A stretch of 64,000 nt of DNA, taken from the NCBI RefSeq assembly GCF_004010195.1, contig NC_057719.1, positions 5,146,412 through 5,210,411 on the forward strand. The letters are read 5' to 3'. Source of the stretch: Chiloscyllium plagiosum. Its lineage: Eukaryota. The translations under genes were made by a program, and so were the position numbers. Shown here piece by piece: positions 8,731 to 63,357 of this stretch. The notes under the pieces were generated by a model, which saw only the letters and a program-made list of their open reading frames with translations, made no database searches and was not told the DNA's origin. Position 1 is the first letter of the stretch, and every line of letters starts with the position of its first letter.

Positions 8731-9014
8731 GGATTAGAGTGTTTCTGGAAAAGCACAGCAGGTCAGACAGCATCCAAGGAGCAGGAAAATCGATGTTTTG
8801 AGTAAAAGTTCTTCATCAGGAATTCCTCCACTATCACCTGATGAAGGAGCGGCGCTCCGAAAGCTAGTGCTTCCAAATAAACCTGTTGGACTATAACCTG
8901 GTGTTGTGTGATTTTTAACTTTGTACACCCCAGTCCAACACCGGCATCTCCAAATCATGACCACTCTAATCTAGGCTCTGATCTTCAGCATCTGCAGTCC
9001 TCACTTTCGCCTAG
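8731..9014. mobile_element. Family A element with 12-bp TSD, carrying a nested family B unit
   Basis: TSD GATCTGAAGTAG at 8719-8730 and 9015-9026; unrelated sequence at ~8825-8963 in the centre. Confidence 0.8.
8835..8869 (+). ncRNA. Minimal type-I hammerhead ribozyme-like motif (family B)
   Basis: Stem I CAC/GTG; core CTGATGA; extra A; stem II GGAGC-GGC-GCTCC; GAAA; palindromic AGCT stem III; predicted cleavage after CTA (8866). Confidence 0.75.
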
Positions 9015-10754
9015 GATCTGAAGTAGCCCATTCAGCCCATGCAGTCTGTTCCGCCATTCAGTGAGATCATGGCTGCCCTGATAACCCTCAACTCCACAAC
9101 CCTGCCTTTGCCCTTGATTCCCATATGGATTAAAAATCTATCTTGAAATTACTCAACAGACTCGCCTCTACAGCCCACTGCGGTAAAGAATTCCACAGGT
9201 TCGCAACACACTGAGACAAGAAATTATACAACAATGGTTAAACATCAGCTATCTCCTACCACACAGCCACATTCCTATCAGTCATAGAGTCATGGAGTCA
9301 GTGGTATGTTATTGATTCCATGAATTCCAACTTTAGCTGAGAATCTGGTATGAGGGACGAAGAAACTCTGCCCTTTACGTGATATTGCAGGCACCAGGGG
9401 ACAAAAGTGGGAAATGAGAGGAAGTAATTTGAATGCAGCAAGTTGCAATGGTAGCTGAGATGACCAATAATTTGGAAATGGTTTGGATTGGACCCTTGAA
9501 AAAACTCAACTTGCAGGGCTATGGAGAGGAATGGGGAAGGGAGTGTGACTCCCCTGAGAAAACATGACGGGGTGAATGTGACACTATGGCTTTATCAAAT
9601 GCCTTCTGGAAATACATATAACATCCAGGGACATTGCTCTGTCCAGTTACTCAACTCTTCAGAAATTTCATTCAGCTTTATCAGGCATGACATAATATTT
9701 ACAACTTCATGCTAGCTCTGTCTGAGCAGCTGAAAAATTTTCAAGGCGCAATATTTTCAAAATGCAACCGAAAAATGTTCACTCTGTTGTTCCATTATAA
9801 TGTTTTGAAACCAGGTGTTAGACTAACTGGTCCATGTTGTCCTGGCCTCCCCCTCTCTCTCTTTCCCACCTTTCCTAGCTAGTAAAGTGACAAATGTAAT
9901 TTTCTAGTGTTCAGGTACAAGTTTTCAAATTTAGCAGTACAGTTTTCTAATCTAAAGGTACAGTGTCCTAATCCAATAGTTTTAGAACTGAAAATGTTTG
10001 GCAAGTTAAAAAATTTAATTTAAGATTAAACATTTATAATCTTTAAAATGGACACTTTCTGGGGCTGGCAAATTTAACCAATCATTAGTGCCTTTGTTTT
10101 CTTCATTAATATTAGTTTGATTATATTAATGTTGGTGAGTCACCGTCCCTAATACAATATGGGTTTCACGGAATTTTACAGTGCAGAATGAGGCCATTCG
10201 GCCCATCATGTCTGTTTCTTTGAGAATTCTGGAATGTTGATCTCTCCCTTCAGTGTAAATACTGAGCAATTACTCCATATGTCCACCATTTCCTTACTGT
10301 GATTGACAATGTCACCATTATAAGTTTCCTGAGGGTGTCCTAGACCTCCCACTCTCCTCATTGTCAGAATTGTTTCTGTTCCCAAACTTCCAAGATTGTT
10401 GCACACTCCATTTTGGAAGCTGACAATGTATGTTTTTCATCCTTTGCCTTTCTCTGTGTTTTTCCTCTCAGCAGGATCTGCACTTCGCTTTTTGTCTGCA
10501 TTTTTGTGGGCTTATTCTTTTAGTTTGATGTTGCCCCTTACCTCCACTGATCCATGATTGTTTTTTAATCAAGAAAATTGCTTTTCCTGCAGGGGTATTA
10601 AAAGGCATTGCATCACATTAAATGTAGTTTTTTGAACAGCCCCCCCTCCCCCTCCCCCCCACCAAACCATCATTTCAGAAGTTTACCCATTGAGGGATTT
10701 ACTGTCATTGTGGATAATCTTTGTCTCTTCCCACAAAGGTCAACCTTATCTAGG

Positions 10755-11200
10755 CTCAAGAAGCTTGACTCTATCCATGACAAAGTGGCCCCTTCTACCA
10801 TATCCATCACCTTAACATTCAGTTCTCATCACCAATGCTCAGTAGCAGCAGTGTATACATCTACAAGACACACTGCAACAATGTACTCAGGTTTCTTCAA
10901 ATACACCTTCCAAACCCAAAACTACTTTCATCTAGAAAAACCAGGGCAGATCATGGGAACACTGCCCCTTGTAAGTTCCCCTCCAAGCCACTCACCGTCC
11001 TGACATAGAAATATATCCTTCACTGTCACTGGGTCAAAATCCTGGAATTCCCTCCCTAACAGCATTGTGGGTTTACCTAAAGCAAACAGACTGCAGCAGT
11101 TCAAGAAGGCAGCTCACTCCCACCTTCTCAAGGGCAACTAGGGATTGGGCAATAAGTGCTGGCCCAGCCAGCGACGCTCACATCCCATGGAACAATTAAA
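10755..11200 (+). mobile_element. 3' fragment of the second LINE family (same as 13040-14640)
   Basis: AAGCTTGAC...ATCCATGACAAAG, CCTGGAATTCCCTCCCTAACAGCATTGTGGG, GGGCAATAAGTGCTGGCCCAGCCAG tail. Confidence 0.75.
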
Positions 11201-11989
11201 CAAAACCTAAATCTCGGTGGAGTGGCAGTTTAATTCTTTTGCCTTTCAAACATTACATTGACCTTGATCCTGCTGTGATCGCTAGTACATATATGTTCAG
11301 GCACCATTAAACTGTAAACTAAACCTGAGGCATTTCTCATTACTAAATCTATCCTGTACTGCCTTGTTGTTGGTCCTCAGGTGTATTGCTATAGATGGAG
11401 CTTGAACTTTTACAATCAGCAATTCCTGTGTTTCTGTGGTAGTTCCATTGCGTGAGTCTGTTTCTCTTGTGTGCCTCAATTTCTTTCTCTCTTCAACTTT
11501 GCCTCAGTTTCTGCTGTATGTGTTTCTGCTTGTCTCTATGCCTACTGAATATGTCACTCAATTCTTGCTGTATCTCTGTCTTGTGAGTGTGTGTCTAAGG
11601 TTATAAAGTTGGTTGGCATTTTGGGTCAGCAAGTTATTTGCATAGCCTTGAGAGATCAAGATCTCCTTATCTTGGAGTTGGTAGTTAGGTGAACTGACAA
11701 CTAGAAATGAATTCACGTCATCTTGGTGATGAACGGGGCTTACTCTATTACTGAATCCCCCCGAACATCAACATCCTGCATTCTGATATACCCAAAACTG
11801 AACTGCATCATAAATACTGCAAGAACAGATCAGAGGTTGGGAATTCGACAGTGAGAATCTTACCTTCTGACTCCTCTCCACCGTGTACAGAGTGTATCCA
11901 AAGAGTATGATGGAGTAATCTTTGCTCACCTGGATGGGTGCAGCTCCAATAACACTTGAGATAGTTCCTCACAATCTAGTACACTTGTT

Positions 11990-12250
11990 TAGGATTTGTT
12001 GCCCATTTCTACCTGCCCAGAGGGCAGTAAAGAGTCAACCACATTGCTGTGGGTCTGGAGTCATAAGTAAGCCAGACATTAGTGAATCAGATGTGTTTTC
12101 TGACAATTGGCAGTGGAGTCATGGTTATCAGATTTTTATTGAATTCAAATTCCACCATCTGTCGTGCTGAGATTTGAACCTGGGTGCCCAGAATATTATC
12201 TGGGTCTCTGGGTTAGTAGTTTTAGTGATAATACTACTACACCATCACCT
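11990..12250 (-). mobile_element. tRNA-type SINE sharing its 3' tail with the 13040 LINE family (related copies ~20060-20330 +, ~25835-26250 -, ~40440-40960 +, ~44820-45130 +)
   Basis: Minus-strand head GGTGTAGTAGTATTATCACT...GGTTCAAATC and tail GGGCAACAAAT. Confidence 0.55.
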
Positions 12251-13039
12251 CCCCCATCCCATCTATCATCTATCACCTTCACTCCTTCTGCCACTAAACA
12301 TTCACAACTGTATGTAAAAATGCAAAGTCACCGTAGTCTTACCAGACCACTGGGCTGCACTCTCATTACAGACAGAGAGAGATGACTGGTGGTGGTTTAA
12401 CCTGAGGGTCACCATGCCTCAGGCAAGGCGAGTAGATAAGAAGGAGAGTCTTTCATGGTAGTTTCAGCCAGTTCAGAATCTGAACCCACACTGTTAGCAT
12501 CGCTCTGGCTCTCAGACCAGCTGTCCAAGTTAACCAACTCCTACACAATGCACCAAGGCTCTCTGGTCAGCACCTTCTAAACTGGCAACATTCACCACCC
12601 AGAAGGTCAACGGCAGCAGACACATGGGATCCTGGTTTGGAAATATATCACTGCTCCTTCACTGTCGCTAACTCTCTTCCAACAGGCATTGTGGATGCCA
12701 CATGGGCTGCAGCAGTTGGCCACATTCTGAAGCACAGTTAGATATGGGTGATAAATTTTGCTTTTGAAAGTAATGACCTTATCTCAGTAATGAAAAAAGA
12801 ACTTCACTGTGCCTTATCACACTGAAACAAAATGATGCTTATGTTTCCATGAGAACCAAAAGGATGTCTGGATAAAACTGCCTAACCACCAATGACAGAA
12901 CGCTCTTAATGCAATTTTATCCCTTGTCAGATGAACATCTTAAATAGAAGTAAAGATTGAAGTAAAGACAAAGGAACACCAGCTTCTGTGATTGATAATT
13001 CAATATTTATTTTCTAGGATGTTTATCTAAGAACTGATT

Positions 13040-14640
13040 TTACAAGGTTCAATGCAATCTTCAGCCAGAACTGGTAAGTGAATGATCCATCTCGGCCTCC
13101 TTTAGTTGTGCCCCCCATCACAGAACCCAGTTTGATTCATTCCACCTGATATCAGGAAAAGGTTGATATTCTAGAATAGTACTGAAGACGTGTGCTCCAG
13201 AACTTGCCGCCCCCCCCTAGCCAAGCTCTTTCAGTACAGTTACAACACTGGCATCTACCCGACAATGTGGAAAATTGCCCGGGTGTGTCCTGTACACAAA
13301 AAGCAGGAGAAATTCAACCTGGCCAATTCCTGCCCAATCGGACCACTCTCCATCATCAGGAAAGTGATGGGAGGGGTCAGCAATAGTGCTATCAGGCAGC
13401 ACCTGCTCAGCAATAGCAATAGTGCTATCAGGCAGCACCTGCTCAGCAATAACCTGCTCAGTGACGCCCAGTTTGGGTTCAGCCAGGGTCACTCAGCTCC
13501 TGACCTCATCACAGCCTTGGGTCAAACATGGACAAAAGAGCTGAATTCCAGAGGGGAAGGGAGAGTGACAGCCCTTGACATCAAGACCATATTTGACCGA
13601 GCGGGTCATCAAGGAGCCCCAGCAAAACTGGAATCAATGGGAATCTGGGGGATAATTAAATCATGCCGGGCACATAGGAAGATAGTTTTTAGAGGTCAGG
13701 CACCTCATCTCTCCAGGAGTTCCTCAGGCTAGTGCTCTAGGCCCAAGCATCTCCAGCTGCTTCATCAATGACCATTATAAGGTCAGAAGTGCGGATGTTC
13801 ACTGATGATTATACCATTCACAACTCCTTAAATACTGAAGCAGTCGGTAGCCAAATGCAACAAGATCTGGGTTTGGACTAACAAGTGGCAAGTAACATTT
13901 ATGCCACACTAATGTCAGGGATTTCCAGCAAAATACAATCTAACCACTGCCCCATGAGAGTTAATCGCATTTCCATTCTGAAAAAGCCCCCTAACACATT
14001 CAACATTCTGGACGTTATTGTTAACCAGAAACTGAAGGGGACTCACCAATAACTACAGTGGCTGCAAAAGCAGGTCAGAAGCTGTAGCAAATAACTCACC
14101 TCCTGACACATCCCGCAGACCACTTGCCATCTACGAGTCACAAGTCAGGAGTGTGATGGAATACGCACCTCTTGCCTGGACGGTTGCACCTCCAACAACA
14201 CTCAAAAACCTTGACACCATCCAGGACAAAGCAGCCCGTTTGATTGACAAGCATCCATTCCATCCATCAGATGCTAGTGTGTACCATCTACAAGATGCAC
14301 TGCAGAAATTCACCAAAGGTCCTCAGACAGCACCTTCCAAACCCACAACCACTTCTATCTAGAAGGACAAGACTGGCAGATACATGGGATCACTACCATT
14401 TGACAGTTCCCTCCAAACCAGTCACCATTCTGATTTTGAAATATATTGCTGTTCCTTTGCTGTTGCTGAGTCAAACTCCTGGAATTCCCTCCCTAACAGC
14501 ATTGTGGGTCTATGTACAGGACATGGACTGCAGTAGTTCAAGAAGACAGCTCACCACTACCTTCTCAAGGGGCACGTAGGGATGGGCAATAAATGCTGGC
14601 CCAGCCAATGACACCCACATCCCATAAATGAATAAAAAAA
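13040..14640 (+). mobile_element. Decayed non-LTR retrotransposon (CR1/L2-group RT, distinct from the HER1-like CR1s)
   Basis: ORF 13190-13732 with PLAKLFQ...WKIARVCPVHKK...QFGF...ALDIKTIFDR; MEYAPLAW; tail ATGAATAAAAAAA. Confidence 0.85.
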
Positions 14641-15819
14641 ACAGCACAGCTCAGCTTGTTCTCAAGGCATAGGTTCAGGCTGAGAGATTCCTGGTTTCTG
14701 AAAGCTCTGTATGTCCCTTTGTCAAACAAATGGTAACAGCAGAGGAAAGCAGCATCAGTGAGTGCCATCTTGCCCTCACTTGTAGTTCTGACCTCTCTTG
14801 TCTGTTTTAATGCTCCTCACAACCTAGTCCACATCCTGAATTTGAGGTAGTCAGTATACAAGCCAGCTCACTGAATGGTATGGATCCACCTCAACGGACT
14901 GAGTGGTCTCCTGTTGTTCTTTACAGAGCTCTTGGTTAATGTGGTCCCATCTTGGTCAGGATAGTTACCTGGTATTCATGCAAAAGCAGCCTGCCCTTCT
15001 TTTGTGATCTATTTCTATTTTGTACATGGATGCAGAGCTTCACCATGTCACATTTTCTTGGAATTTCCATGGTTCCTGAATGTCACAGAGTTTTGGAGTT
15101 CTACAGCATAGAAAATGCCCCTTTGGCCCAATGAATCTGGGTCAGCCAAAAACAACCACCTAACTATTCTAATCCCATTTGCCAGCACTTGGCCCATAGC
15201 CTTGTGAGTCTTGGCATCAAAAGTCTACTTCAATGTTCTGACGGGTTCTGATGGAATCCAAACTTAACTGTACAGTGAGAGCTGATGTTGTCAGCTTGCT
15301 GCTGCTGCTGGATATCTGTAATATGTGAAAGCTAAGCTGGAGAAAATAGATGCAGCGTTGATATTACCGTCATATTGACTAATATCTTATTTGTTGAGAA
15401 ATAGTGTGATAAAAGATAACCCTGACTTCCTCAGAGTGCAATGGAAAAACAACTTGTAAGTGAGATCAGCATTGGGTGGACAGAATGAGAGATTCTATTA
15501 AAATACGGACACGACAGAATACCTTGATTGACTGTAAACATTTTTGCCTCCCAGGTGCCTGGAAACAAAAGGTAACCCTTTGCCGTTCATTGGCAGTATT
15601 TTTGCAAATGTTAGTCAATATCTCGATCAAAGATCTGGAGCCAGAGAGGCTTTAAAACAGGAAGTGGAGGCAGAGAGGAAGAGATGCTTCAGGGTGCTAT
15701 ATTTAGACAAAGAGTGATAGATGGTCTTTATATAGTGGGTCAAAGCAAAAACGATAGGTAAGAGAAACCATGGCCTCATCTTTGCTCTCTTAAATTGGAG
15801 GGGTGCAAATTTAAATGGC

Positions 15820-16146
15820 GGGCACCACTAGCAGTGGCTCAGTGGTGAGCAGTGCTGCCTCACAGCATCAGGGACCTGGGTTCAATTCCACCCTTAGGAG
15901 ACTGTCCGTGTGGAGTTTGCACATTCTCCCTGTGTCTGCATAGGTTTCCTCCCACAGTCCTAAGCTGTACAGGTTAGGTAGGTTAGCCATGTTAAATTGC
16001 CCATTGTGTCCAGGGATTAGCCACGGGCAATGCAGAGTTACAGGGATAGGATAGGGAGGTGGGTCTGGCTGGGATGCTCTTTGGAGGACCGGTGTGGACT
16101 CGATGGGACAAATGGTCTGCTTCCACGCTGCAGGGCCTCTATGACT
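15820..16146 (+). mobile_element. HE1-like SINE
   Basis: A/B boxes and TGTGGAGTTTGCACATTCTCCC core. Confidence 0.8.
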
Positions 16147-16199
16147 TTCAGATCCTGCTCCTGTCATTAATACTTCTTGAATCAAGAAGTGTAAGATAA

Positions 16200-18640: not shown

Positions 18641-18772
18641 AGGAGAAAGTGAGGACTGCAGATGCTGGAGATCAGAGTCGAGAGTGTGGTGCTGAAAAAG
18701 CACAGCAGGTCAGGCAGCATCCGAGGAGCAGGAGAATCGACATTTCGGGCAAGAGGCCTTCATCGGGAATGA
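18641..18772 (-). mobile_element. Family A single-arm copy
   Basis: AGGAGAAAGTGAGGACTGCAGATGCTGG...CCTTCATCGGGAATG. Confidence 0.75.
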
Positions 18773-18869
18773 GGCTAACCTCTCGGGGGATGTCCTCTTG
18801 TTTTATTCAGATGCCTTCTGTTCAGTGTTCAATACAGGTGTATTTTGTAGTGGAGAAAATATGAAGATG

Positions 18870-19900
18870 AATGTTAGAATCGATCAGAAATGAAGCAATA
18901 AATGGTCTCTTGGAGCAACTGATTGGATTTGGCCTAGTCAGCATGGATTAGTGAGTGGAAAATTATGTTTGATGAACTGGTTGAAGAATTTTGAAGGGAG
19001 TTAACAGATGAGTTGACACATATGACTTTCAGAGCTGAAAATGTGTTGCTGGAAAAGCGCAGCAGGTCGGGCAGCATCCAAGGAGCAGAAGAATCGACGT
19101 TTTGGGCATGAGCCCTTCTTCAGGAATGAGCCCATTCCTGAAGAAGGGCTCATGCCCGAAACGTCATTCCTGAAGAAGGGCTCATGCCCGAAACGTCGAT
19201 TCTCCTGCTCCTTGGATGCTGCCTGACCTGCTGCGCTTTTCCAGCAACACATTTTCAGCTCTGATCTCCAGCATCTGCAGTCCTCACTTTCCCCACATAT
19301 GACTTTCAACAAAGTTCCTCCCAAGAGATTGGTTAGAAACATTAAAGCACACAGAATAGGAGGCAAAGTGCTGGCATGGATTAAGCATTGACTATCAGAC
19401 AGAAAACAGAGAATAACGAATACATGAGTCATTCTCACATTGACAGACTGTGACTAGTGGGGTACCACAAGGATCAGTACCCCAGCCCCAGCTGATCAAA
19501 ATATAGATCAATGATTTGGATCTGGGGAATGAACATTTCAATGTTTGTGGATGATACAAAACTGAGCAGGAACGTGTGTTGTGATGAAGAAGTAAAATGT
19601 TTTCAAAAAGATTTTGACAGGCTCAGTGAATAGGAAAGAAGATGGCAGATGGAATACAATGTGGAAAATGTGAGATTATTCATGATGGTAGGAAGACCAA
19701 TTGTGCAGGATATTTCTTAAATAGTAAGAAGTTAGATAGTGTAGATGTCACAAAGGTGTCCTTGTCAATAGGTCATTGAAGGCTAACATGCAGGTGCAGT
19801 GAGCTGGAAGGCTAATGGAATGTTAGCCTTTATCGCAAGAAGATTTCAGTACAGCAGCAGTGAAGGCTTGCTTCATTTGTATAAGAGCCTGATTAGACTG
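18870..19900 (+). mobile_element. Decayed CR1 RT fragment, interrupted by a family A element
   Basis: Remnants of TSGVPQGSV, DDTKL and WQMEYNVE. Confidence 0.7.
19032..19293. mobile_element. Family A fold-back element with tandem hammerhead-like cores and 15-bp TSD
   Basis: TSD CACATATGACTTTCA at 19017-19031 and 19294-19308; 32-bp tandem repeat 19134-19165/19166-19197. Confidence 0.9.
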
Positions 19901-22290: not shown

Positions 22291-22932
22291 GTCATAGAGT
22301 CATAGAGATGTACAGCATGGAAACAGACCCTTTGGTCCAACTGCCCATTTCAACCAGACATCCCAACTCAATCTAGTCCCACCTGCCAGCACCCGGACCA
22401 TATCCCTCCAAACCCTTCCTATTCATATACACATCCAAATGCTTCTTAAATGTTGCAATTGTACCAGCTTCTACCACATCCTTTGGCAGCTCATTCCATA
22501 CACGTACCACCCTCTGCGTGAAAAAGTTGCCCCTTAGGTCTCTTTTATATCTTTCCCCTCTCACCCTAAACCTATGCCCTCTAGTTCTGGACTCCCCGAC
22601 CCCAGGGAAAAGACTTTGCCGATTTACCCTACCCATGCCCCTCATCATTTTGTAAACCTCTATAAGGTCACCCTTCAGCCTCCGACGCTCCAGGGGAAAC
22701 AGCCCCAGGCTGTTCAGTCTCTCCCTGTAGCTCAGATCCTCCAACCCTGGCAACATTCTTGTAAATCTTTTCTGAACCCTTTCAAGTTTCACAACATCTT
22801 TCCGATAGCAAGGAGACCAGAATTGCACGCAATATTCTAACAGTGGCCTAGCCAATGTCCTGTACAGCTGCAACCTGACCTCCCAACTCCTGTACTCAAT
22901 ACTCTGACCAATAAAGGAAAGCATACCAAATG
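22291..22932 (-). mobile_element. Young CR1 (HER1-like) 3' segment
   Basis: Open ORF2 C-terminus AFGMLSFIGQ...RPLLEYCVQFWSP...GPGAGRWD; (CTCTATGA)n tail. Confidence 0.95.
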
Positions 22933-24442
22933 CATGGATTTGTTCCAGGTGCTCTGAGTTTCCTCCCAAAGTCCGAAGATGTGCAAGGTAGGTGGACTGG
23001 CCATGGTAAATTGCCCATAGTGTCTAGGGATGTGCTAGCTAGGTGGGTTAGCCACGGGGAGTGCAGGGTAACAGGGACGGGGTGGGATCTTTAGAGGTCA
23101 GTGTTGACTGAATGGGCAGCTTCCATACTGTAGGAGATTCTATGATTTAGGAATAAGGAAATAATTTGTGTGCAGTGTTTTCCAAGGCAGTGATAGATAG
23201 CTGTGTGCAAAGAGAAATTGGGAGGGGTGGGGGGATGTTTGGTATCAGAGTCAAGATTAGAGTGCTGCTGGAAAAGCACAGCAGGTCAGGCAGCATCTGA
23301 GGAGCAGGAATTGTTATGTTGTGGGAAGGAGATGGGATATTGGAGTTGATGATAGGTAGATTGGAGGGGATGGAGTATGGGGGAGATGATGCACAGAAAT
23401 GGAGATATCTACGGTAAGGAGTTATCCAGTTAGGACAGAGATGAGGAGGAATTTCTTCGTACAACGTGTAATGAATCTATGGAATCCACCTAATCCGCAC
23501 ATCTATGGACTGTGGGAGGAAACCAGAGTAAACCCACACAGACACGGGAAGAATGGGCAAACTCTACACAGTCACCTGAGGATGGAATCGTACCCGGGTC
23601 CCTGGCACCATGAGGCAGCAGTGCTAACCACTGAGCCACCATGCTGCCCCTTAGTGACATACTTTGTTTTATAATGCTCCTGTTAAGCGCTTTTGTTGTG
23701 TTAAAGGCAAAGTAAAATTGTTGGATGAGACCATCCTGACTTACAATGTCACCGCCATCTCCACGTCTTTGTTATTTTCAGCTGACTGAAATCACTGAAG
23801 CTATTGGAACACTATACATTATGTCTTCACGGCAGTGTCTTTGTTACCTCCTAAATGATTCTGCAGTAGTCAAAGTGTATTTTACCAACAGCATTTTATT
23901 TACACTCTGATGCTGCAAAAGTGTTAAAAGGTATGGCACTGGAAAAGCACAGCAGGTCAGGCAGCATCCGAGGAGCAGGAGAGTCGACATTTTGAGCATA
24001 AGCCCTTCATTATTCCTGATGATCTCCAGCATCTGCAGTCCTCGCTTTCTCCTCATTGATGTTGCATACAGTCATTGAGCTACACTAGTTCAGGGTGTTT
24101 CCTCTATTAGGTTTCCCTTACCTCTCTGTCCTAGTCATGGGATGATACATCACCATTCTACCAGGAGCCTGTGGGCTGATTCTATTAAACCATTACCCCA
24201 CAGGCAACGAGAGCAGGTCTGAGTCTAGATCAATATTTCTGAAATCTCAAGCATCGCAGCTCTGTAAGGACTCACCAAAATATGAACTTATTACCTCTTC
24301 TGGGCAACTAGGGTGGACAATAACTTGACTTTGCCAACATCACCTATCGTTGTAACGATGCTGCTCCTTTAACAAGGTTATATTGTCCTTGGCTTTGTAG
24401 AGGGTTGTAAAGGCAAAGGTTTTGATATTTCTAGAATTATCT
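22931..24442 (+). repeat. Copy 2 of the ~1.5-kb duplication
   Basis: Near-identical to 5102-6614; begins mid-SINE. Confidence 0.95.
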
Positions 24443-30720: not shown

Positions 30721-30930
30721 CTGAAAATGTATTGCTGGAAAAGCGCAGCAGGTCAGGCAGCATCCAAGGAGCAGGAGAATCGACGTTTCAGGCATGAGTC
30801 CTTCTTCAGGAAAGGCTCATGCCCGAAATGTCGATTCTCCTGCTCCTTGGATGCTGCCTGACCTGCTGCGCTTTTCCAGCAACACATTTTCAGCCCTGAT
30901 CTCCAGCATCTGCAGTTCTCACTTTCTTCC
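30721..30930. mobile_element. Family A fold-back element with 14-bp TSD (one mismatch)
   Basis: TAAGTACATGAATA 30707-30720 / TAAATACATGAATA 30931-30944. Confidence 0.85.
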
Positions 30931-32502: not shown

Positions 32503-34290
32503 AGTCATAGAATCATACGGCATGGATACAGACTCTTTGGTCCAACTTGTCCATGCTGACCAGATATCCTAAACTGACTTACTCCCATTTGCCAGTACTT
32601 GGCTAAAATCCCTCCAAACCCTTCCTATTTCTAATCCAAACTGCTAAATCACCCTCAATCCCATGCCTCCGCATTTTCTCCAGCAGTCTACCATGTGGAA
32701 CCTTATCAAAGGCTTTACTGAAATCCATATACACCACGTCAACTGCCCTCCCCTCATCCACATGCTTGGTCACCTTCTCAAAAACCTCAATGAGGTTTAT
32801 GAGACATGACCTGCCCTTGACAAAACCATGTTGACTATCTCCAATCAAATTGATGCTTGCTAAATGATTATAAATCTGATCTCTTATAATCCTTTCCAAA
32901 ACTTCTCCTACAACACACGTAAGGCTTACTGGTCTATAATTGCCTGGGTTATCTCTACTGCCCTACTTGAATAAGAACCCAACATTTGCAATCCTCCATT
33001 TCTCTGGTACTAAATCTGTAGTCAATGACGACTTAAAGATCAAGGCCAAAGGCTCCGCCACCTCCTCCCTAACTTCCCAGAGAATCCTCGGATAAATCCC
33101 ATCCAGTCCAGGGGATTTTTCTACTTTCACACGTTCTAGAATTGATAACACCTCTTCCTTACTAACCTTAATCCTTTCTAGTCTAATATCTCGTACCTCA
33201 TTCTTCTCCTCTACAATATTATCCTTTTGCTGAGTGAAAACAGACGAGAAATATTCATTTAGCACCTCTCTGATCTCCACAGGGTCCACACTCAACTTTC
33301 CACTTCTGTCTTTGACTGGACCTATTCCTATCCTAGTTATCCTTTTATTCCTCACATACCTAGAGAAAGCTCTAGGGTTCTCCTTTATTCTACTTGCTAA
33401 AGATTGCTCACGTCTCCTCCTTGCTCTTCTTAACTCTCTCTTTAAATCCTTCCCAGCTAATCTGTAACTCTCCATTGCCTCATCTCAACTATCTCATCTC
33501 AACGTAACATAAGCCTTTGCTTAACAAGAGATGCAATTTCTTTAGTAAACCACGGTTCCCTCACCTTAATGCTTCTTCCCTGCCTGACAGGGACATACCT
33601 ATCAAGGACACACAATAGTTGTTCCTTAAACCAGCTCCACATTTCGATTCGTACCCATCCCCTGCATTTTGCTACCATTCTATGCATCCCCAAGTCTTGC
33701 CTAATCACATTATAATTGCTCTTCCCCCATCTATAACTCTTGCCCTGTGGCATGTAACTATCCTCTCCATCACAAAACTAATCGTAACCGAATTATGGTC
33801 ACTCTTTCCAAAATGCTCACCTACCACTAAATCAAACACCTGGCCTGGTTCATTACCACGTACCAGATCCAGTGTGGCCTGCCCTTGTCAGCCCTTCGAC
33901 ATGCTGTGTCAGGGAGCCCACCTGCACCCATTGGACAAAAACTGATCCATCCAACATATTAGAGTGAAAGCATTTCCAGTCAATGTTGGGGAAGTTAAGG
34001 TCCCCCATAATGACCGGGGAGAAAGTGAGGTCTGCAGATGCTGGAGATCAGAGATGGAAAGGTGTTGCTGTAAAAGCGCAGCAGGTCAGGCAGCATCTAG
34101 GGAACAGGAGAATCGACGTTTCAGGCATTAGCTCTAGGGTTCACCTGAAGAAGGGCTAATGCCCGAAACGTCGATTCTCCTGTTCCCTAGATGCTGCCTG
34201 ACCTGCTGCGCTTTTCCAGCAACACATTTCCACCCCCATAATGACCACCCTGGTCCTTTCACTCCTACCCAGAATTGTTTTGCCAATCCT
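32503..34290 (-). mobile_element. CR1 LINE (EN-linker-RT), internally deleted and joined to its 3' end
   Basis: ORFs 33499-33753, 32963-33475 (KSPGLDGIYPRIL) and 32603-32899 (QHGFVKGRSCL, YMDFSKAFDKVPH). Confidence 0.9.
34016..34232. mobile_element. Family A fold-back element with 14-bp TSD
   Basis: TSD CCCCCATAATGACC at 34002-34015 and 34233-34246; intact + core CTGAAGA-A-GGGC-TAAT-GCCC-GAAACGTC. Confidence 0.9.
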
Positions 34291-35194: not shown

Positions 35195-36494
35195 CACAGA
35201 TGCTGTGGGATACTCTCCACTTGCCTGGATGGATGCAGCTCTAACAACACTCAGAAAGCTTGACATCATCCAGGACAAAGCAGCCTACTGCTCAAGGATT
35301 TGAAAAATGCTAAATAAAGTTACTGCTTATGTGTGTGTGTAAACTACATGGAAGAGTGTTGGAAGCAGGTTTATCAGGAATGTTCAAAAGGAAATTGAAT
35401 AAAATCCTGTAATTGGAACAGTCAGGCCTGGGAGTGAGGTCATCTGAGAACTCCCAGAGTTATGATGGGCCAAGTGTGATACTCTGAGCTTGCAGTCAGT
35501 CTGGCTGTTGGTTTGCCATCAGTTGATTTTCTTCACTGGCTGACACCAGTTTTAATGATGAGGGAAGGTCATGTGCCTCATTGCCTCGTGAGTCACAAGG
35601 TTATAAGTTAAAGTCTACTCTCATCAATTTGGCTAACAGCCCTTCATAATGAAAATTTTTAAAATGGGATCTTGCTGTGCATAGCTTGGCCACACCAGAT
35701 CACCTGACCGGTTGCAGAGCGCTTTGGAAACTGTGAGCGGTGCTATGTAGATGCATGTTCTTCCTTTTTGCTGAGGAACCCAGTTCCTCCCCGTCACTCT
35801 GTGGAAAGTTTGCAACCTGTGGATTTGCTGCTGGGAGACAGGTGCCAGGCAATAGGGTCAGGAGGAGGCCATTCAGCCCTCCAAATCGATCAGCCATTCT
35901 GCCAAATCATGGCTGATTTTCTGCTCAACACTATTTTGCCACACTCTCTCCATCTCCCTTGGTGTCCTTAATACCCAAGGTCACTACCAGCAGTGCTGAG
36001 GAAGGGTCACTGAACCCAAAACATTAATGCCACTTTCTCTCCACAGATGCTGCCAGACCTGCTGAGTTTTCTCAACAATTTCTGTTTTGGTCACTAACAT
36101 GGAACAGTGAATTCCACAGGGGACTAGCTGCATGATCCAGGACATGTTAGAGTTTAAATAATTACAGCAATAAGTAAACAGCTTTAGAGAAATTTCCAGG
36201 GCTTGAGTCACAATTGAAGGCATTTAATCCTAAAAACAACAAAGGTGGTCTGACAACCGACAGGAAAGCTAAACTGTTGGAAGTCCAGCTGGAGCATAAT
36301 GGCTCGGACTCATTCCTGGAGGGAGGAGTTCGGCAAAAATAAGAACCAGGAGCTGGAGTAGGGCTCTCAGACCTTCAGGTCTGCTTCACCATTCAACAGT
36401 CAAGGCTGATCTTCTGTCATAAGTCTATTTTCCTACAATGACCCCTACCCTTTCATTCACTTGAGATTCTAATCAGAGAAATTCTGCACTTTTG

Positions 36495-37015
36495 GAATAC
36501 TGATGAAGGAAGGATGTTGTGAAACTTGAAAGGGTTCAGAAAAGACTTAGAAGGATGTTGCCAGGGTTGGAGGGTTTGACCTATAGAGAGAGAGAGACTG
36601 AATAGGCTGGGGCTATTCTCCCTAGAACTTCAGAGGTTGAGGGGTGAGCTTATACAAGTTTGTAAAATCATGGGGGACATGGATACAGTGAATAGCCAAG
36701 ATCTTTTCTCTGGGGTGGGAGAGCCCAAAACTAGAGGGGCTTTAAGGTGAGAGGGGAAAGATTTAACAGGAACATAAGGGGCAACTTTTTCACGCAGAGG
36801 ATGGTGGGTGTATTGAATGAGTTGCCAGAGGAAGTGGAGAAGGCTGGTCCAATTACAGCATTTAAAAGGCATCTGGATGTGTATATGAATAGGAAGGGTA
36901 CAGAGGGATATGGGCCAAATGCTGGCAAATGGGACTAGATTAATTAGGATATCTGGTCAGCATGGACACATTGGACGAAAAGGATTAGTTTCTGTGCTGT
37001 ACAACTCTATGACTC
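36495..37015 (+). mobile_element. CR1 3' fragment
   Basis: RGNFFTQRMVGVLNELPEEV...GPNAGKWD. Confidence 0.9.
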
Positions 37016-40219: not shown

Positions 40220-40377
40220 CTTGAGATCACAGCGGCCCAGACAGCATCCATGGAGAGAGAGCATGTTAACGTTTCGAGGTGTCTCTTCATCAGGACACTG
40301 TGAGCACCCGCTGTGACCTCCAGCATTTTGGTTTGTTTTCAGTACAGATTCCAGCATCTGCAGTAATTTGCTACTAC
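40220..40377. mobile_element. Family C fold-back element with minus-strand hammerhead-like core
   Basis: GTTAACGTTTCGAGGTGTCTCTTCATCAGG; reverse complement CTGATGA-A-GAG-ACAC-CTC-GAAACGTT. Confidence 0.65.
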
Positions 40378-51366: not shown

Positions 51367-51590
51367 AAAGGAGAAAGTGAGGACTGCAGATGCTGGAGAT
51401 CAGAGCTGAAAATGTGTTGCTGGAAAAGCGCAGCAGGTCAGGCAGCATCCAGGGAACAGGAGAATCGACGTTTCGGGCATAAGCCCTTCTTCAGGATTCC
51501 TGAAGAAGGGCTTATGCCCGAAACGTCGATTCTCCTGTTCCCTGGATGCTGCCTGACCTGCTGCGCTTTTCCAGCAACACATTTTCAGCT
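51367..51590. mobile_element. Youngest family A element: perfect 93-bp inverted repeat plus one-sided tail, ~15-bp TSD
   Basis: Arms 51404-51496 and 51498-51590 are exact reverse complements; TSD CTTAAAGTTGACAAG at 51352-51366 and 51589-51603. Confidence 0.95.
51494..51533 (+). ncRNA. Minimal hammerhead ribozyme-like motif (family A type copy; mirror copy on - strand)
   Basis: CTGAAGA 51500-51506, A, GGGC-TTAT-GCCC, GAAA 51520-51523, ACGT palindrome, GTC triplet ending at 51527; short imperfect stem I. Confidence 0.7.
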
Positions 51591-52055: not shown

Positions 52056-52855
52056 TTGATTTATTTATTGTAATGTGCAGTTTGTTACAAAATACAGTGA
52101 AAAGCATTGCAGAGTGTTACTACTCTCTGATGGCATCTTAAAACATAGAAAAAATTATCTAAACATAGAATATTAAGACAGAAAAACGAAGAAATCACAG
52201 TCCTTCTTGTTAAGTGCTCCATCGTAGGCCATGGGACTAGTGGACAGCCATGTGTTCCCTTCACCATGCCACCACTGCTGGACCAAACGTCATCGCTCTT
52301 CAGCGCTATCCCATCTCCAAGGACATCCTCGCACCGCGAGTCATTGATGGACCTTGACAATGCCACCGGGTACCACATTAGTTCAAACTCATCTCCCACC
52401 CTCGCCGTGAGTCCCCATGGGCCCACCTTGCTGATGCAGAAGCTGCTGGTGCTGCAGGGTCTCATCATTCCTGATGAAGGGCTTTTGCCTGAAACGTCGA
52501 TTTTCCTGCTCCTCGGATGCTGCCTGATCTGCTGTGCTTTTCCAGCACCACTCTAATCTTGACTCTGATCTCCAGTATCTGCAGTCCTCACTTTCGCCTG
52601 CAGGGTCTCATACAAGGTCCGAATTCACATCTGTCTCTGTGAACCTGCGCCGGACGCAGACCCCACCGGGAACCCAAACTCACCTCCACAGCTGCACACC
52701 AGGAGTCTGGGCTGCTGGACCTACTCTCCACTGGCAATGCCATCGCTGCAACTGAACTCTTAATAGAAAGAAAATAAACAAGAGAAGAGAGAGAAAAAAA
52801 GCAAAAAGAAAAGTGGAGGAGCATTGGGACGCCCTCCTCCACCGCTATCTTACCA
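52056..52855 (-). mobile_element. Putative non-autonomous retroelement with Rex1-like 3' end
   Basis: 3' end resembles 29860-29900 (TTATTGT...CAGTGAAAAGC); 5' AAGATAGCGGTGGAGG; flanking CATTCCACA at 52047-52055 and 52861-52869. Confidence 0.45.
52466..52597 (+). mobile_element. Family A solo unit with 14-bp TSD
   Basis: TSD CTGCAGGGTCTCAT at 52452-52465 and 52598-52611; starts CATTC-CTGATGA. Confidence 0.9.
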
Positions 52856-56090: not shown

Positions 56091-56233
56091 TCTAATTTTA
56101 CAAGCGATAAATAAAGTGTTCAAAGAAAATGAAAATACCACTTTTATTTTGCCACATCCTGTGATTTCTTACCTTGCCTCTGGCTGGAGGCAGGGTCCAG
56201 GAGATTAAATCTCTAATTCCGGTAGAATGCAGC

Positions 56234-56560
56234 GAACAAAATGTTTATTTCTCAGCAATACTCAGGTCCTGCACCAAACGATTAAAAATTATTGAACAGT
56301 ATGTTTATTGTTGATGTTTTGATCACAGAGGCAAATGATTGTTAAATTTGATTGTTAAGTTTGAAAGTGAGCAACCAGTCAGTACACACAATCACACTTA
56401 ACAATCATTTGTCCCTGTGATCAAAAGATCAACAACAAACATACCCTTCAATAATTTTTAATTGTTTGGTGCAGGACCTGAGTATTGCTGAGAAATAAAC
56501 ATTTTGTTCAATCTTTTCATCTTGCATTCATTAGACCAATTACAAAAATACCCATGTAAA
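56234..56560. mobile_element. AT-rich fold-back element (family E), ~110-bp arms plus one-sided tail
   Basis: GAACAAAATGTTTATTTCTCAGCAATACTCAGGTCCTGCACCAAAC (56234...) inverted at ...56509. Confidence 0.8.
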
Positions 56561-56604
56561 AGGAATAACAGCCATTAAATGTGATCATGCACAGTGGCTT
56601 AGTT

Positions 56605-56880
56605 AGGGTGGCATGGTGGCTCAGTGGTTAGCACTGCTGCCTCACAGCGCCAGGGACCCAGGTTTGATTCCCACCTCGGGCGACTGTCTGTGTGGAGTTT
56701 TGCACATTCTCCACGTGTCTGCGTGTGTTTCCTCGCACAATGTGCAGGCCAGGTGAATTGTCCATAGTGTTTAGGGTAAATGTAGAGGAATGGGTCTAGG
56801 GGGTTACTCTGCAGAGGGTTGGTGTGGACTTGTTGGGCTGAAGGGCCTGTTTCCATGCTGTAGGTAATCTAATCTAATCA
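56605..56880 (+). mobile_element. HE1-like SINE
   Basis: A/B boxes and (TAATC)n tail. Confidence 0.9.
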
Positions 56881-58283
56881 CTGGTCCATCAGGCAAAAGC
56901 CTTTCACCATCAAATATTTCAGATAGAAATTGATGGCAGAGGGCTGTCATAACATTTTGATGAGCACTTGTGATGGGCTAAATGCTACAAAATGGGATTG
57001 GGATTGTCAGATGGATGGTTTTGTCTGACGTGACTATGATGGGCTGAAGGGCTTTTTTCTGTGCTATAGGTTCCGATAACTCCTATGGTGCAGTGGTAGT
57101 GTCCCTACCTCTGGACGAGGAGGCCTTGATTCAATTTCCACCTGCTCCAGACGTGTGTTATAACATGTCTGAACAAGTTGATTAAAAATATCGAAAATGT
57201 TCCTCCTTCTTTACGTCGGTACATCTTACCACTGTCCTGATCACACAAGATGAAAAACTTCATCGAAATGTGTCTTTTTCCACAAAGCAATTTTTGTGAA
57301 ACAATGCAAGAAACGTTGACCTGATAAGGGTGCAATAAGGGCATGAGGACTTGAATGCTTCTCTGGAACAGGCTCAGATAATTAAGTCGCATGTCATCTG
57401 AAAACTGAATGGGATGATAAATAAGTTTTCCATCTGTCCTACGGGGTATAAAGATTTCATGGTAGGAAAAAAGGGGAATTCTTGGCAAATATGTATCGAC
57501 ATCTGGTGGCGGTTTCATTGCTGCTTGTGGGGGCTTGTTGTGTGAAACTTCACTGTGTCTCCAACCTTGCAGTAATGTTCAAACCTACTTCATTGGTCCT
57601 GAGTTGCATCAGGGCTCACTGTAGTCTCAAAGGGCATGACGGAAAAGCAAGACCTTTGTCACAGATTTGTTTATGCTTTGTTCGTGTGGGGAGAGTAATC
57701 ATTCTGTTAATTTAATGGTTGTCCAACTATCATCAAGCAATGTGAGATAAAAGCTGATTACTGATCTCAATCTTGAGATGAACTCAGAACATGGTTAGGA
57801 ACATGGGACTGGGATATCATAGCAATTACAGAAACATGTCTCAGAGACGGGCAGGACTGACAGCTTAATGTTCCAGGATACAAATGCTACAGGAAGGATA
57901 GAAAGGGAGGCAAGGGAGGAGGGGGAGTGACGTTTTTGATAAGGGATAGCATTACAACTGTGCTGAGGGAGGATATTCCCAGATATACATCCAGGGAAGT
58001 TACTTGGGTGGAACTGAGAAATAAGAAAGGGACAATCACCTTATTTGGATTGTATTATAGACCCCCTTATAGTCAGAGGGAAATTGAGAAACAAACTTGT
58101 AAGGAGATCTCAGCTATCTGTAAGAATAATAGAGTTGTTACAGTAGGGGATTTTAACCTTCCAAACATAGACTGGGACTGCCATAGTGTTAAGGTTTTAG
58201 ATGGAGAAGAATTTGTTAAGTGTGTACAAGACAATTTTCAGATTCAGTATGTGGATGTACCTACTAGAGAAGGTGCAAAACTT

Positions 58284-58475
58284 TGAGGAGAAAGTGAGGT
58301 CTGCAGATGCTGGAGATCAGAGCTGAAAATGTGTTGCTGGAAAAGCGCAGCAGGTCAGGCAGCATCCAGGGAACAGGAGAATTCCTGAAGAAGGGCTTAT
58401 GCCCGAAACGTCGATTCTCCTGTTCCCTGGATGCTGCCTGACCTGCTGCACTTTTCCAGCAACACATTTTCAGCC
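58284..58475. mobile_element. Family A fold-back element with a single unpaired core, 14-bp TSD
   Basis: TSD AAGGTGCAAAACTT at 58270-58283 and 58476-58489; core 58385-58412. Confidence 0.9.
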
Positions 58476-59759
58476 AAGGTGCAAAACTTGACCTACTCTG
58501 GGAAATAAGGCCGGGCAGGTGACTGAGGTGTCAGTGGGGGAGCACTTTGGGGCCAGCGACCATAATTCCATTAGGTTTAAAATAGTGATGGAAAAGGATA
58601 GACTAGATCTAAAAGTTGAAGTTCTAAATTGGAGAAAGGCCAAGTTTGACGGTATTAGGCAAGAACTTCGAAAAGCTGATTGGGGGCAGATGTTCGCAGG
58701 TAAAGGGAAAATGGCCTTCAGAAATGAGATAACGAGAATCCAGGGAAAGTGTATTCCTGTCAGGGTGAAAGTAAAGGCTGGTAGATATAGGGAATGCTGG
58801 ATACAAAGAAATTGAGGGTTCGGTTAAGAAAAAGGAAGGTATAGACAGGATAGATTGAGTGAATCCTTAGAGTATAAAGGAAGTAGGAGTATACTTAAGA
58901 GGGAAATCAAGAGGGCAAAAAGGGGACATGAGATAGCGATGGCAAATAGAATTAAGGAGAATCCAAAGAGTTTTTACAAATACATTAAGGACAAAAGGGT
59001 AACTAGGGCGAGAATAGGGCCCCTCAAAGATCAGCAAGGCGGCCTTTTTGTGGAGCCGCAGAAAATGGGGGAGATACTAAATGAGTATTTTGCATCAGTA
59101 TTTACTGTGGAAAAGGATATGGAAGATATAGACTGTAGGGAAATAGATGACGACATCTTGCAAAATGTCCATATTACAGAGGAGGTGGTGTTGGTTGTCT
59201 TGAAACACATAAAAGTGGATAAATTCCCAGGACCTGATCAGGTATACCCTAGAACACTGAGACTGATTAGCAAGGTTAGATCTCATGGAATACAGGGAGA
59301 ACTAGCCATTTGTATACAGAACTGGCTCAAAGGTAGAAGACAGAGGGTGACGGTGGAGGGTTGTTTTTCAGACTGGAGGCCTGTGACCAGTGGAGTGCCA
59401 CAAGGATCGGTGCTGGGTCCTCTATTTTTTGTCATTTACATAAATAATTTGGATCTGAGCATAAGAGGTACAGTTAGTAAGTTTGTAGATGACACCAAAA
59501 TTGAAGGTGTAGTGGACAGTGAAGATGGTTACCTTAGATTACAACAGGATCTGGACCAGATGCGCCAATGGGCTGAGAAGTGGCAGATGGAGTTTAATTC
59601 AGATAAATGTGAGGTGCTGCATTTTGGGAAATCAAATCTTAGCAGGACTTATACACTTAATGGTAAGGTCCGAGGGAGTGTTGCTGAACAAAGAGACCTT
59701 GGAATGCAGGTTCATAGCTCCTTGAAAGTGGAGTCGCAGGTAGATAGGATAGTGAAGAA

Positions 59760-59983
59760 NNNNNNNNNNNNNNNNNNNNNNNNNNNNNNNNNNNNNNNNN
59801 NNNNNNNNNNNNNNNNNNNNNNNNNNNNNNNNNNNNNNNNNNNNNNNNNNNNNNNNNNNNNNNNNNNNNNNNNNNNNNNNNNNNNNNNNNNNNNNNNNNN
59901 NNNNNNNNNNNNNNNNNNNNNNNNNNNNNNNNNNNNNNNNNNNNNNNNNNNNNNNNNNNNNNNNNNNNNNNNNNNNNNNNNNN
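59760..59983. other. Assembly gap (N run)
   Basis: Ns in sequence. Confidence 1.
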
Positions 59984-60719
59984 AGCTGCCAGAGGAAGTG
60001 GTGGAGGCTGGTACAATTGCAACATTTAAAAGGCATTTGGATGGGTATATGAATAGGAAGGGTTTGGAAGGATATGGGCCAGGTGCTGGCAGGTGGGACT
60101 AGATTAGGTTGGGATATCTGGTCGGCATGGACGGGTTGGACCGAAGGGTCTGTTTCCATGCTGTACATCTCTATGATTCTATGACTATGCTACTGCTGCT
60201 GGCTGATTTAAAATGGAAATGATATGGTAGTGGAAAAAACTGAAAGGGCTCAACAGAATTATCAGTGACCGAGAGAGGCGACAGCTTAATGTTCATTTAG
60301 AACTGTTCTGATTGGAAAGACACAATAATTTAGGGTAGTATTAATGTCCCCATGGACAGATTTGGTTGATTATAAAGAGTCAACACAGATTTCTCATGGG
60401 AAAATTATGTTTAACTAACTTGCTAGAGATTTTTCATAAGGTAATACAGAGGGTTGATGAGTTGGAGGCTGTAAGTGTGATCTACATGGATGTCCAGAAG
60501 ACATTTGATCCAGTGCTACACAACAGACACAGAGAGCCAATGGCTTAATGCTATTATCAGTAAATTGTTAACCCACAGACTCAGAGACTCCATAGTTTGG
60601 AGAGAGAGCTTTAGTTTGAGTTTTGGACAGTCCTGTGAAGTCCTTGGAATAGGATGGCTACATGGACCAGCATTCCTGAGAAGGGAAGGATGTATTTACC
60701 TCCTCATTTGCTCTTCAAT

Positions 60720-61500
60720 ATTTCAAAATCTATCTGCCTCCTCTTTAAATACTTTTAGTGATTGAGCCTCCACAACTCGCTGGGATAGGGGATTCCAGAC
60801 ATTCATATCCTCTGAGAGAAGAAATTCCTTCATATCTCCATTTTAAATTAGTGTCCCCTTATTTTGTAACAATGTCCCTAGTTCGAGATTCCCCCACTAA
60901 TAGGAAACATCTTCTCTGCATCTACCCTGTAAAGCCTCCTCAGAATCTTGTATGTTTCAATAAGATCACCCCTCATTCTTCTGAACTCAAATGAATAAAG
61001 ATCGAATCTGTTTAGTCATTTTTCATATGTCTATCCTTTCAACCCAGGAATAAACCTAGTGAATCTCTCTTGAACTGTCTCCAATGTCAATACATGCTTT
61101 CTTAAATACAGGGACCAAAACTGTACACAGTCCTGATACTGTGGTCTCAGCAACACTCTGCACAGTTGTAACAAGACTTACCCATTTTAAAATTCTGTAG
61201 CAATAAATGCCAAAATTCAATTTGCTATCTGAATTACTTGCTGTAACTGCATGCTTATATTTTGGGTTCATGCACAGGAATACCTAGAACCTTGTGTGGT
61301 ACATTCTTTTTAGAGTCTCTCTCAATTGAATTAATACAGTTTTATTATTTTTTTCTTCCTACCAAAGTGCATGACCACATACTTCCCTACATTCAACTCC
61401 ATCTGTCAAGTTTTTTGTCCACTCATTCAACCTATCATCACTTTGCACATCACTACATCCCTTCCCACCTATTTTTGCTGCATCAGCAAGTTTGGATACA
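60720..61500 (-). mobile_element. Older CR1 fragment
   Basis: Reverse-complement ORF2 C-terminal remnants (CAGTTTTGGTCCC, TTCTTCTCTCAGAGG). Confidence 0.7.
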
Positions 61501-61904
61501 TTATATTCTGCCCATGGGTGAGGAAGTCTTTCAATTCATCCACAAGTATTTTCTAAAATATAAATAAGAGATCTGCTGCACAATGTATTTTGTAGTCAAA
61601 TCAAATGTAGGATGAATGACAGGCATTTCAATGGATTAATAACGTAATAGTATTGACGAAAAGAGAGGCTAGCCAGTAATAAAACAAAGAACTGAAATAT
61701 ACAAAGAAACACAGAAATGGCTGGAGAAATGCAGTAAGTCTGGCAGCATTGTAAAGAGAAACCAGAGTTAACATTGAACCCTTCTTCAGAACAATCCAGT
61801 AATGTATTTTTGTGTGAGTTCTCTTAACACAATGCAGCAACATGACAGGCAGAGGGTGAGTACAATGAATGAATGATAGGTGATTGTGACTGGAAATTAT
61901 GAGG

Positions 61905-61940
61905 CTTTTTCTCAGTTTCTCTGTGTCTCTTTCCCTCCAG
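61905..61940 (+). promoter_or_regulatory. Splice acceptor for the GPCR coding exon
   Basis: Polypyrimidine tract TTTCTCTGTGTCTCTTTCCCTCCAG ending at 61940, 135 nt before the ATG. Confidence 0.7.
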
Positions 61941-62075
61941 CTAGAAAATCTGCAATGGAAAAGAATTTGAAGAAATAATATCAGGACAAGTTTGATCCAA
62001 CAAGCAAGGCCATAGCTGGGAATCCAATGCACAAATAAGTTTATTTTGAAAGAAAATTTTGAGTTGTGTTGAACG

Positions 62076-63104
62076 ATGAGCAACTGTACTGTCGACCACA
62101 GTATCCACCAGATCCTGTTTCCCGCCGTCTACATTGGGGTCTTCATCATTGGCCTCCCGATTAACCTGCTGTCCCTGTATCACAGCTACCTACAGATCAG
62201 GCAGAAGAATGAGCTGGGAATCTATCTCTGTAATCTGACCATCTCAGACCTGTTGTACCTCCTTTCCTTACCTTTGTGGATTCAGTACATGCTGCAGCAC
62301 GATGACTGGCAATATTCTCGGGAACTTTGCATCTTCAGCGGTCTGCTCCTCTACCAGAATATTTACATCAGTATTGGCTTCCTCTGCTTCATTGCCATTA
62401 ATCGCTTCCTTGTTGTGGCTTACCCTCTGAAATTTAAATTCATACACAGCAGGAAGGCAGCTTTGCTCATCAGTATTCTCATCTGGCTCAAGGAGATAGC
62501 TGTCTGCACCATTTACATGGGCTCCAAGGTTCTCAGTAAAGACGAGGGGAATGATACCCTGTGTTTTGAACATTATCCTCTGCGCCTAAAGGACAGATAT
62601 TTAAATATTTACAAACTCTCCATTGGCTTCAGCCTCCCTTTGATATTATTGATCTACTCTTACTATAAGGTGTTGAGAGTTGTGCACAAAAGCCATGGAC
62701 TTGAAAGACAGCGGAAATTAAGAATAAAAAAATTGGTATCTGGGACAATCATCATTTTCCTGGCTTGCTTTGCCCCTTATCACATTTTCCTGATGGTTCG
62801 AAGCATATTTGAGTATGACTGTCCCTTTGCTGACAGTATTTTTGAGGTTTACCATTTTGGGCTCCTGCTGATGAGCTTAAACTGTGTGGCCGACCCTGTT
62901 TTGTACTGTTTCATATCACAGAGTTCCCAGAGCTGGTTAGCCAGGTTCCTGGATCCTGTTATCAATCTGCTTCCTTGTGGGAAAAAAGAAGAAATTGTGG
63001 CCCTTGAGATGAAGGGCAGCTCACCGCTTACAACTAAAACAAGTCTGTTACCTCAAAGACACCAGAAACAAGAAAAATATGAATACCAACACTCAAAGGT
63101 GTGA
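62076..63104 (+). CDS. GPR68: Proton-sensing class A GPCR, GPR68/OGR1-like (342 aa; ortholog versus paralog unresolved)
   Basis: Intact ORF with 7 hydrophobic segments; GPR68-like motifs CTVDHSIHQ, NELGIYLCNLT, LQHDDW, CFEHYP, CFAPYH and NCVADPVLYCF. Confidence 0.9.
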   Translation: MSNCTVDHSIHQILFPAVYIGVFIIGLPINLLSLYHSYLQIRQKNELGIYLCNLTISDLLYLLSLPLWIQYMLQHDDWQYSRELCIFSGLLLYQNIYISIGFLCFIAINRFLVVAYPLKFKFIHSRKAALLISILIWLKEIAVCTIYMGSKVLSKDEGNDTLCFEHYPLRLKDRYLNIYKLSIGFSLPLILLIYSYYKVLRVVHKSHGLERQRKLRIKKLVSGTIIIFLACFAPYHIFLMVRSIFEYDCPFADSIFEVYHFGLLLMSLNCVADPVLYCFISQSSQSWLARFLDPVINLLPCGKKEEIVALEMKGSSPLTTKTSLLPQRHQKQEKYEYQHSKV

Positions 63105-63315
63105 ACTGTTAATTAAACTTCTCCTGGTCTTTCAGTAAAATCCACACACATAGATGTGCTGGGGTCAGAGGACAAAGTATGAAGTGTAAAGGAGGCTTAA
63201 TTCAAGAGCGTTGCAATATAAAAGCAAAGTACTGTAGCTGCTAGTAATCTAAAATAAAGACAGTGAATCCCGGAGAATCTCAGCAGCTCTGGCAGCATTT
63301 TTATACAGAGAAACA

Positions 63316-63357
63316 GAGTTAACGTTTCGAGTCTGATGTAGCTCTTCATCAGAACTC
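63316..63357 (-). ncRNA. Minimal hammerhead-like motif (family C/D) downstream of the GPCR stop codon
   Basis: Reverse complement GAGTT-CTGATGA-A-GAG...CTC-GAAA-CGTT-AACTC: 5-bp stem I, AACGTT palindrome. Confidence 0.65.

Follow-up and report, generated by a model that had tools for sequence, protein, structure and literature searches.

A 64-kb stretch of the 3.56-Gb genome of Chiloscyllium plagiosum (positions 5,146,412 to 5,210,411 of contig NC_057719.1; the window below) contains short motifs that are the minimal type-I hammerhead published from the pseudo-long terminal repeats (pLTRs) of Penelope-like retroelements (PLEs). The structure is real and in itself ordinary: what we add are new hammerhead families belonging to a motif described in 2014. 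We consider it highly probable that these motifs are the end-pieces of several PLE families, each with a minimal type-I hammerhead whose stems I and II covary and whose RNA cleavage likely requires two copies joined by base pairing at their 4-base palindromes.

The core of the motif reads CUGANGA ... GAAA ... UH. Both boxes and the U were fixed in our search patterns while the H was left free, and position 17 is H, never G, in all ten family majorities. A search with the core only, over 621,570 non-N bases (the window plus 60 unselected 10-kb stretches, 600 kb in all, of the same genome), gave 137 matches, 40 of which form a stem II of at least three Watson-Crick pairs past one unpaired base; without that offset only 13 do so. 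Stem II formed in 0 of 25 matches in the reversed control and in 0 of 49, 1 of 82 and 0 of 84 matches in three Markov controls. The single unpaired base and the G-C first pair of stem II are constant across all ten families, a constancy largely built into the patterns. There is no loop III; in its place stands a palindrome at positions 15.2-16.2, with CG in eight family majorities and GC in two, the GC of family B2 having been imposed by the pattern that found it. Since A15.1 and U16.1 are invariant, just two palindrome letters are free. The distance between the core boxes is 12 nt in family F, 13 in A, 14 in B, 15 in D, 16 in C and 12-19 in G and H, at odds with a preliminary description of the window, which had supposed the core spacing to be the same in every family. 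An Rfam scan returned no hammerhead family at E values up to 1, giving only sub-threshold matches of microRNA (miRNA) type on fold-backs. A coding explanation was dropped on inspection, as the families share neither a start nor a frame.

Ten families (A1, A2, A3, B, B2, C, D, F, G and H) were recovered, with 3 to 71 distinct copies each, beside 62 unclassed mutants and chance matches among the loci collected; F, G, H, B2 and A3 (loci L121-L195 and L052) are additional to those listed in the preliminary description. The family B 28-mer occurs in 1,032 exact copies in the genome, and none in the control. A genome pattern of the C/D/F type gave 3,031 matches (control 0), one with a G-Y stem start, which includes families G and H, gave 178 (control 46), and one that includes B2 gave 158 (control 1). 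The majority stem II is a 5-bp GAGTC/GACTC in family C (n=4) and GGGTC/GACCC in family D (n=12); two stem-II pairs, both compensated, distinguish B2 from B, and the stem II of family H is bulged.

Support for the fold comes from stem I, which the preliminary description had missed. No search placed a constraint on its strands, which are separated by 25-35 nt, and at its first three positions 28 of 30 cells are paired in the family majorities, as against 3-4 of 30 when one strand is slid. Three Watson-Crick types occur at each of these positions, and in a strand-swap test the observed score was reached by the true pairing alone among 5040, 720, 120 and 24 swaps. At positions 2-4 of stem II, where the letters were partly set by the patterns, there are three to four types of pair. 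In an alignment of nine natural copies, 90.1% of cells are paired and the covariation score is 0.684, compared with 0.212 after shuffling (0 of 500 shuffles, which ignore relatedness, reached the observed score) and at most 0.149 when slid. Two-sided changes affect six of eight pairs, a number reached by 28 of 500 shuffles; further pair types were not above shuffles (300/500). Families B and B2, which MAFFT misregistered, were left out of this alignment and placed instead by a script that used their core register. No more than three deep groups (G, B and A/F/C) are supported by a rough tree of the endonucleases, so that each column holds just a handful of independent events; in all three groups the catalytic boxes are the same. 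Apparent compensated double mutants in families A and B were discarded, as a pattern that forces Y...R selects them. The covariation is real and stronger than the preliminary description had claimed from stem II, and the compensatory changes in both stems support its suggestion of selection for a hammerhead fold across lineages.

The motifs sit in the pLTRs of coding elements. At one locus with the B motif an endonuclease frame ends 753 nt upstream, and when 29 other loci were found by searching with the B endonuclease protein, 25 carried a B hammerhead on the same strand, 298-1250 nt downstream; among the other four, one had just 590 nt of flank. An endonuclease also lies upstream of 2/23 A1, 2/14 A2, 2/6 A3, 7/14 F, 2/4 C, 2/7 G and 1/9 B2 copies, and location in the pLTR of an element with reverse transcriptase (RT) and GIY-YIG endonuclease was found for families A, B, C, F and G. 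The open reading frame (ORF) of one element (L178) matches RVT_1 above the cut-off; the Pfam search gave no match for the endonuclease, which was called GIY-YIG by motif. A full-length B element (L174) consists of a hammerhead, tail, ATG, RT, endonuclease and a second hammerhead 3,251 nt on, so that two direct copies flank the ORF, and an inverted copy lies at its 5' end. The same order of RT and GIY-YIG endonuclease with CCHH, together with 5' truncation, an inverted 5' copy and a tail, characterizes the endonuclease-bearing PLEs described by Craig et al. (2021; PMC8557442). The A and B endonucleases carry a CX4CX2C linker, as does the Neptune/Nematis type (CX2-5CxxC), while none was seen in G, which resembles the Penelope/Poseidon type in this respect (PMC8557442); these clade names are assigned by motif.

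The dispersed copies are decaying. Of 47 B copies with an anchor on each flank, the 11 core letters are complete in 28 and the core is damaged in 19; within B, one-sided stem changes outnumber two-sided ones 35 to 2, and CpG sites decay fastest. As the copies decay without compensation, selection likely acted on source elements, and the data fit constraint on those sources followed by mostly neutral decay of what they left behind. The copies in the window are probably mostly inactive. Alignments of A copies begin between 10 nt before and 5 nt after the core start in 68 of 113 cases (72 of 117 when another reference is used), and those of B begin near it in 19 of 42, a clustering that is soft, since subfamily divergence upstream also ends alignments. 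There was no enrichment of starts within one base of the cut site (1/113 and 2/117 for A, the same pool with two references; 0/42 for B). The copies span the predicted cut site, and we infer that those in the window are 5'-truncated insertions from RNA that was uncut there.

Transcripts of family B could be followed in a single-cell poly(A) RNA run (X19) of one sample from a close relative or the same species, which shares 82% of the words of the stretch. On the B pLTR lie 2,759 reads; poly(A) tails follow two of its positions (in 322 and 422 reads), at 12-15 nt past ATTAAA/AATAAA and ahead of a GU-rich tract. Polyadenylation of family-B RNA occurs about 30 nt beyond the predicted cut, the hexamer itself lying some 10 nt past it (8876-8881 in the window; L178:7841-7861) and being present as AATAAA or ATTAAA in at least 114 of the 131 B copies listed. 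These reads stem from many copies and may belong to host transcripts that end there. A limited literature search, which included PMC2377424, found nothing relevant on a PLE poly(A) site beside a hammerhead. The site adjoining the B motif provides a map of the RNA ends of the element that can be tested, and tens of thousands of B pLTR copies carrying it could end host transcripts.

We propose that the source elements were under purifying selection as they transposed. Two pLTR hammerheads within one transcript, unit-plus or tandem, would pair ACGU:ACGU (or AGCU:AGCU) and swap their stem-I strands; so paired, they may cleave slowly, possibly with protein help, trimming or circularising the element RNA. 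Cleavage as a dimer is suggested here by analogy with published PLE hammerheads. Several observations weigh against this reading. The dimer-specific signal in the genome is one CG/GC swap, and a search for AATT palindromes gave only A and B mutants among the 100 of 103 matches listed and no AATT family. Nearest-neighbour energies show no gain on dimerization, at -13.3 for the A1 dimer against 2 x -7.2 for monomers and -17.3 against 2 x -8.6 for B. The two unpaired stem-I cells are a U-U mismatch in A1 and A2, and no endonuclease could be tied to family D (0/12 convincing) or H. In X19, depth continues across the B hammerhead, reads cross the predicted cut uncut with no pile-up of starts or ends there, and family A reads lie on both strands, likewise without a pile-up at the cut, in a library that would likely lose short cut products. 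Even in dispersed B copies the core is less mutated than the flanks, contrary to expectation (non-CpG mismatch 2.2% versus 6.8% raw), so that pure neutrality is not proven; the flank value drops to 3.6-4.0% (p 0.07-0.12) once subfamily columns are removed. Finally, the hammerhead of the Anolis Poseidon element PAc cut solely with its protein, and insertion in vitro did not depend on cutting (Frangieh et al., 2024; PMC11167929).

The PAc result favours an explanation in which the same fold works as a monomer helped by protein or serves as a binding structure for protein, the palindrome just reflecting a strained A15.1-U16.1 hairpin stabilised by a PLE protein. The energies agree with this, and covariation of stems I and II is equally compatible with a monomer. 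We nevertheless regard it as improbable: the two middle palindrome bases, left free in the searches, are adjacent and unable to pair in cis, yet they swap together from CG to GC in the majority sequence of family B; family majorities retain a mutable CpG although copies decay to TG/CA; and the published alignment contains CG, GC, UA and AU words (PMC4209133). When non-palindromic words were searched for, visual inspection of the first 100 among 3,985 matches showed mutants of families already recognized. The paired changes themselves might instead reflect hairpin correction at the DNA level (template switching in quasi-palindromes) or the design of our searches, not selection on RNA, and the Y...R-forcing pattern and the partly preset stem II letters lend this some weight. 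Against it stand the pairing of the distant, unconstrained stem I strands, the scarcity of double changes within B and the catalytic boxes, invariant across deep groups; together they largely refute it, and we think it very unlikely. Least probable of all is that the dispersed copies are under host selection as working ribozymes. Their lower core mismatch and their presence in RNA reads would suit that idea; the damaged cores, the uncompensated stem breaks and the mirror copies that adjoin four of the seven best-formed window copies do not.

Returning to the paired hammerheads, according to the energy model both cores have three or more stem-I pairs in seven of eight homodimers and in none of 28 heterodimers. 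This raises the idea, which we advance as a speculation with the odds against it, that stem I and palindrome form a family-private pairing code, within a pLTR that would act like a retroviral R region holding a ribozyme. The mRNA would run from just before one hammerhead to a poly(A) site about 30 nt after the other, and the sole matched pair would join the transcript ends and release a unit-length RNA ready to circularise. Such a code, if true, would stop co-resident families from cutting each other's RNA.

Between 8835 and 63357 of the window both core boxes are exact at 14 sites, and 12 of these have a stem II of at least three pairs. The self-complementary word that the preliminary description placed after GAA is kept in 11 of the 12, though of its AACGTT only ACGT can pair, the outer A being core A14 and the outer T the cleavage-site base 17. 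In seven of the 11, three or more stem-I pairs are preserved as well, the first among them, and a mirror copy adjoins four of these seven. The stems that it assigned to family A (GGGC/GCCC; 19170, 34145, 51494 minus, 51500 and 58385) and to family B (GGAGC/GCTCC with AGCT; 8838) are present to the letter. Its other two stems are there in sequence and do not represent families: GAG/CTC at 40268-40293 minus belongs to a single damaged copy whose tail matches family C, with the first stem-I pair broken and a spacing of 11 nt, and GGGTC...AACCC at 35996 to a single decayed copy of family D without the palindrome and the G of GAAA, both lost by CpG decay. A site at 36500 was discarded as chance (position 17 is G, with one stem pair). 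The copies are listed below.

Hammerhead copies and associated features in the window (coordinates are window positions)
Feature	Position	Strand	Details
Family B minimal hammerhead	8835..8869	+	Stem I CAC/GTG; core 8838-8844; unpaired A8845; 5-bp stem II 8846-8858, GAAA, AGCT palindrome; predicted cut after 8866
AATAAA polyadenylation hexamer, then GU-rich stretch	8876..8881	+	RNA reads carry poly(A) tails at the homologous site
Family B tail	8882..8959	+	Ends at the position of the ATG that opens the PLE ORF in the full-length copy (comparison with L174)
Inverted family A copy	19123	-	Beside the 32-nt tandem duplication
Two family A cores (19138, 19170)	19134..19201	+	In a 32-nt tandem duplication
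Family A copy	34141..34176	+	5' strand of stem I lost at inversion junction
Decayed family D copy	35992..36030	+	GAAA and palindrome lost; D of the preliminary description
Damaged family C-type copy	40264..40297	-	Shortened stem II; C of the preliminary description
Two intact family A hammerheads in mirror orientation (51494 minus, 51500 plus)	51463..51531	both	100% inverted identity
Family A2 hammerhead	52467..52502	+	Intact but for a G-U first stem-II pair; no mirror copy
Intact family A hammerhead	58381..58416	+	Partial mirror copy
C/D-related hammerhead	63316..63357	-	Stem I GAGTT/AACTC; ACGT palindrome; no mirror copy

The sub-threshold miRNA-precursor matches fall on fold-back PLE ends at 8126-8238, 30750-30864, 34091-34195, 51450-51543 and 58332-58454, which would form long hairpins if transcribed. 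The window is also rich in LINE fragments, which we take to be CR1-like, with many RVT_1 reverse-transcriptase pieces (e.g. 22373-23023 and 58828-60102). An intronless frame of 343 aa at 62073-63104 (+) matches Pfam 7tm_1 (E 6.8e-46) and presumably resembles the proton-sensing receptors of the GPR4/OGR1/G2A group. A segment of about 1 kb at 5387-6391 is duplicated 17.8 kb away at 23216-24219 with 97-99% identity, which suggests a local segmental duplication; a similar duplicate is also found in loci L043 and L047. Finally, an inverted repeat at 56234-56509 (122-nt arms, 93% complementary, 32-nt spacer) is unrelated to the hammerhead families.

One genome with about ten natural variants of known pairing provides a panel for testing whether the PLE hammerhead acts as a dimer or with protein assistance, and whether it is needed or dispensable. 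Two leads deserve a modest follow-up: the family-private pairing and the poly(A) site, of which the latter is new. The fold, the covarying families and the dimer model are already published: Cervera and De la Pena (2014; PMC4209133) reported minimal hammerheads in the pLTRs of metazoan PLEs, with "consensus families full of covariations", an extra base, G10.1-C11.1 and a palindrome, proposed dimers and reported low activity. Our families share with theirs CUGANGA, the one extra base, G10.1-C11.1, GAAA, the palindromic 15.2-16.2, UH and a short stem I, as well as several covarying families per genome, mostly solitary truncated copies and opposite-strand pairs. They differ in their short stem II (4-5 bp), in the poly(A) site beside the B motif, which the available part of that paper does not mention, and in a host group that seems new to it (no shark terms in the two supplement files searched). 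Like the dimer-cleaving PLE hammerheads of Lunse et al. (2016, as reviewed in PMC6765202), which required dimers and had low rates in vitro, they are of type I with a very short palindromic stem III, ours being known from sequence. PAc (PMC11167929) is alike in its pLTR hammerhead, in insertions from uncut RNA and in RNA-seq without ends at the cut site; its ORF starts within the hammerhead, whereas the ATG of family B lies about 90 nt past the cut. Non-LTR retrozymes, reported in one cartilaginous fish (PMC7229834; bioRxiv 10.64898/2026.07.22.740005), also have type I hammerheads related to those of PLE pLTRs. They form tandem arrays, in contrast to the dispersed truncated ends of coding PLEs described here, and as for arrays with a hammerhead per unit, the window shows just the two-copy duplication of 32 nt at 19133-19202.

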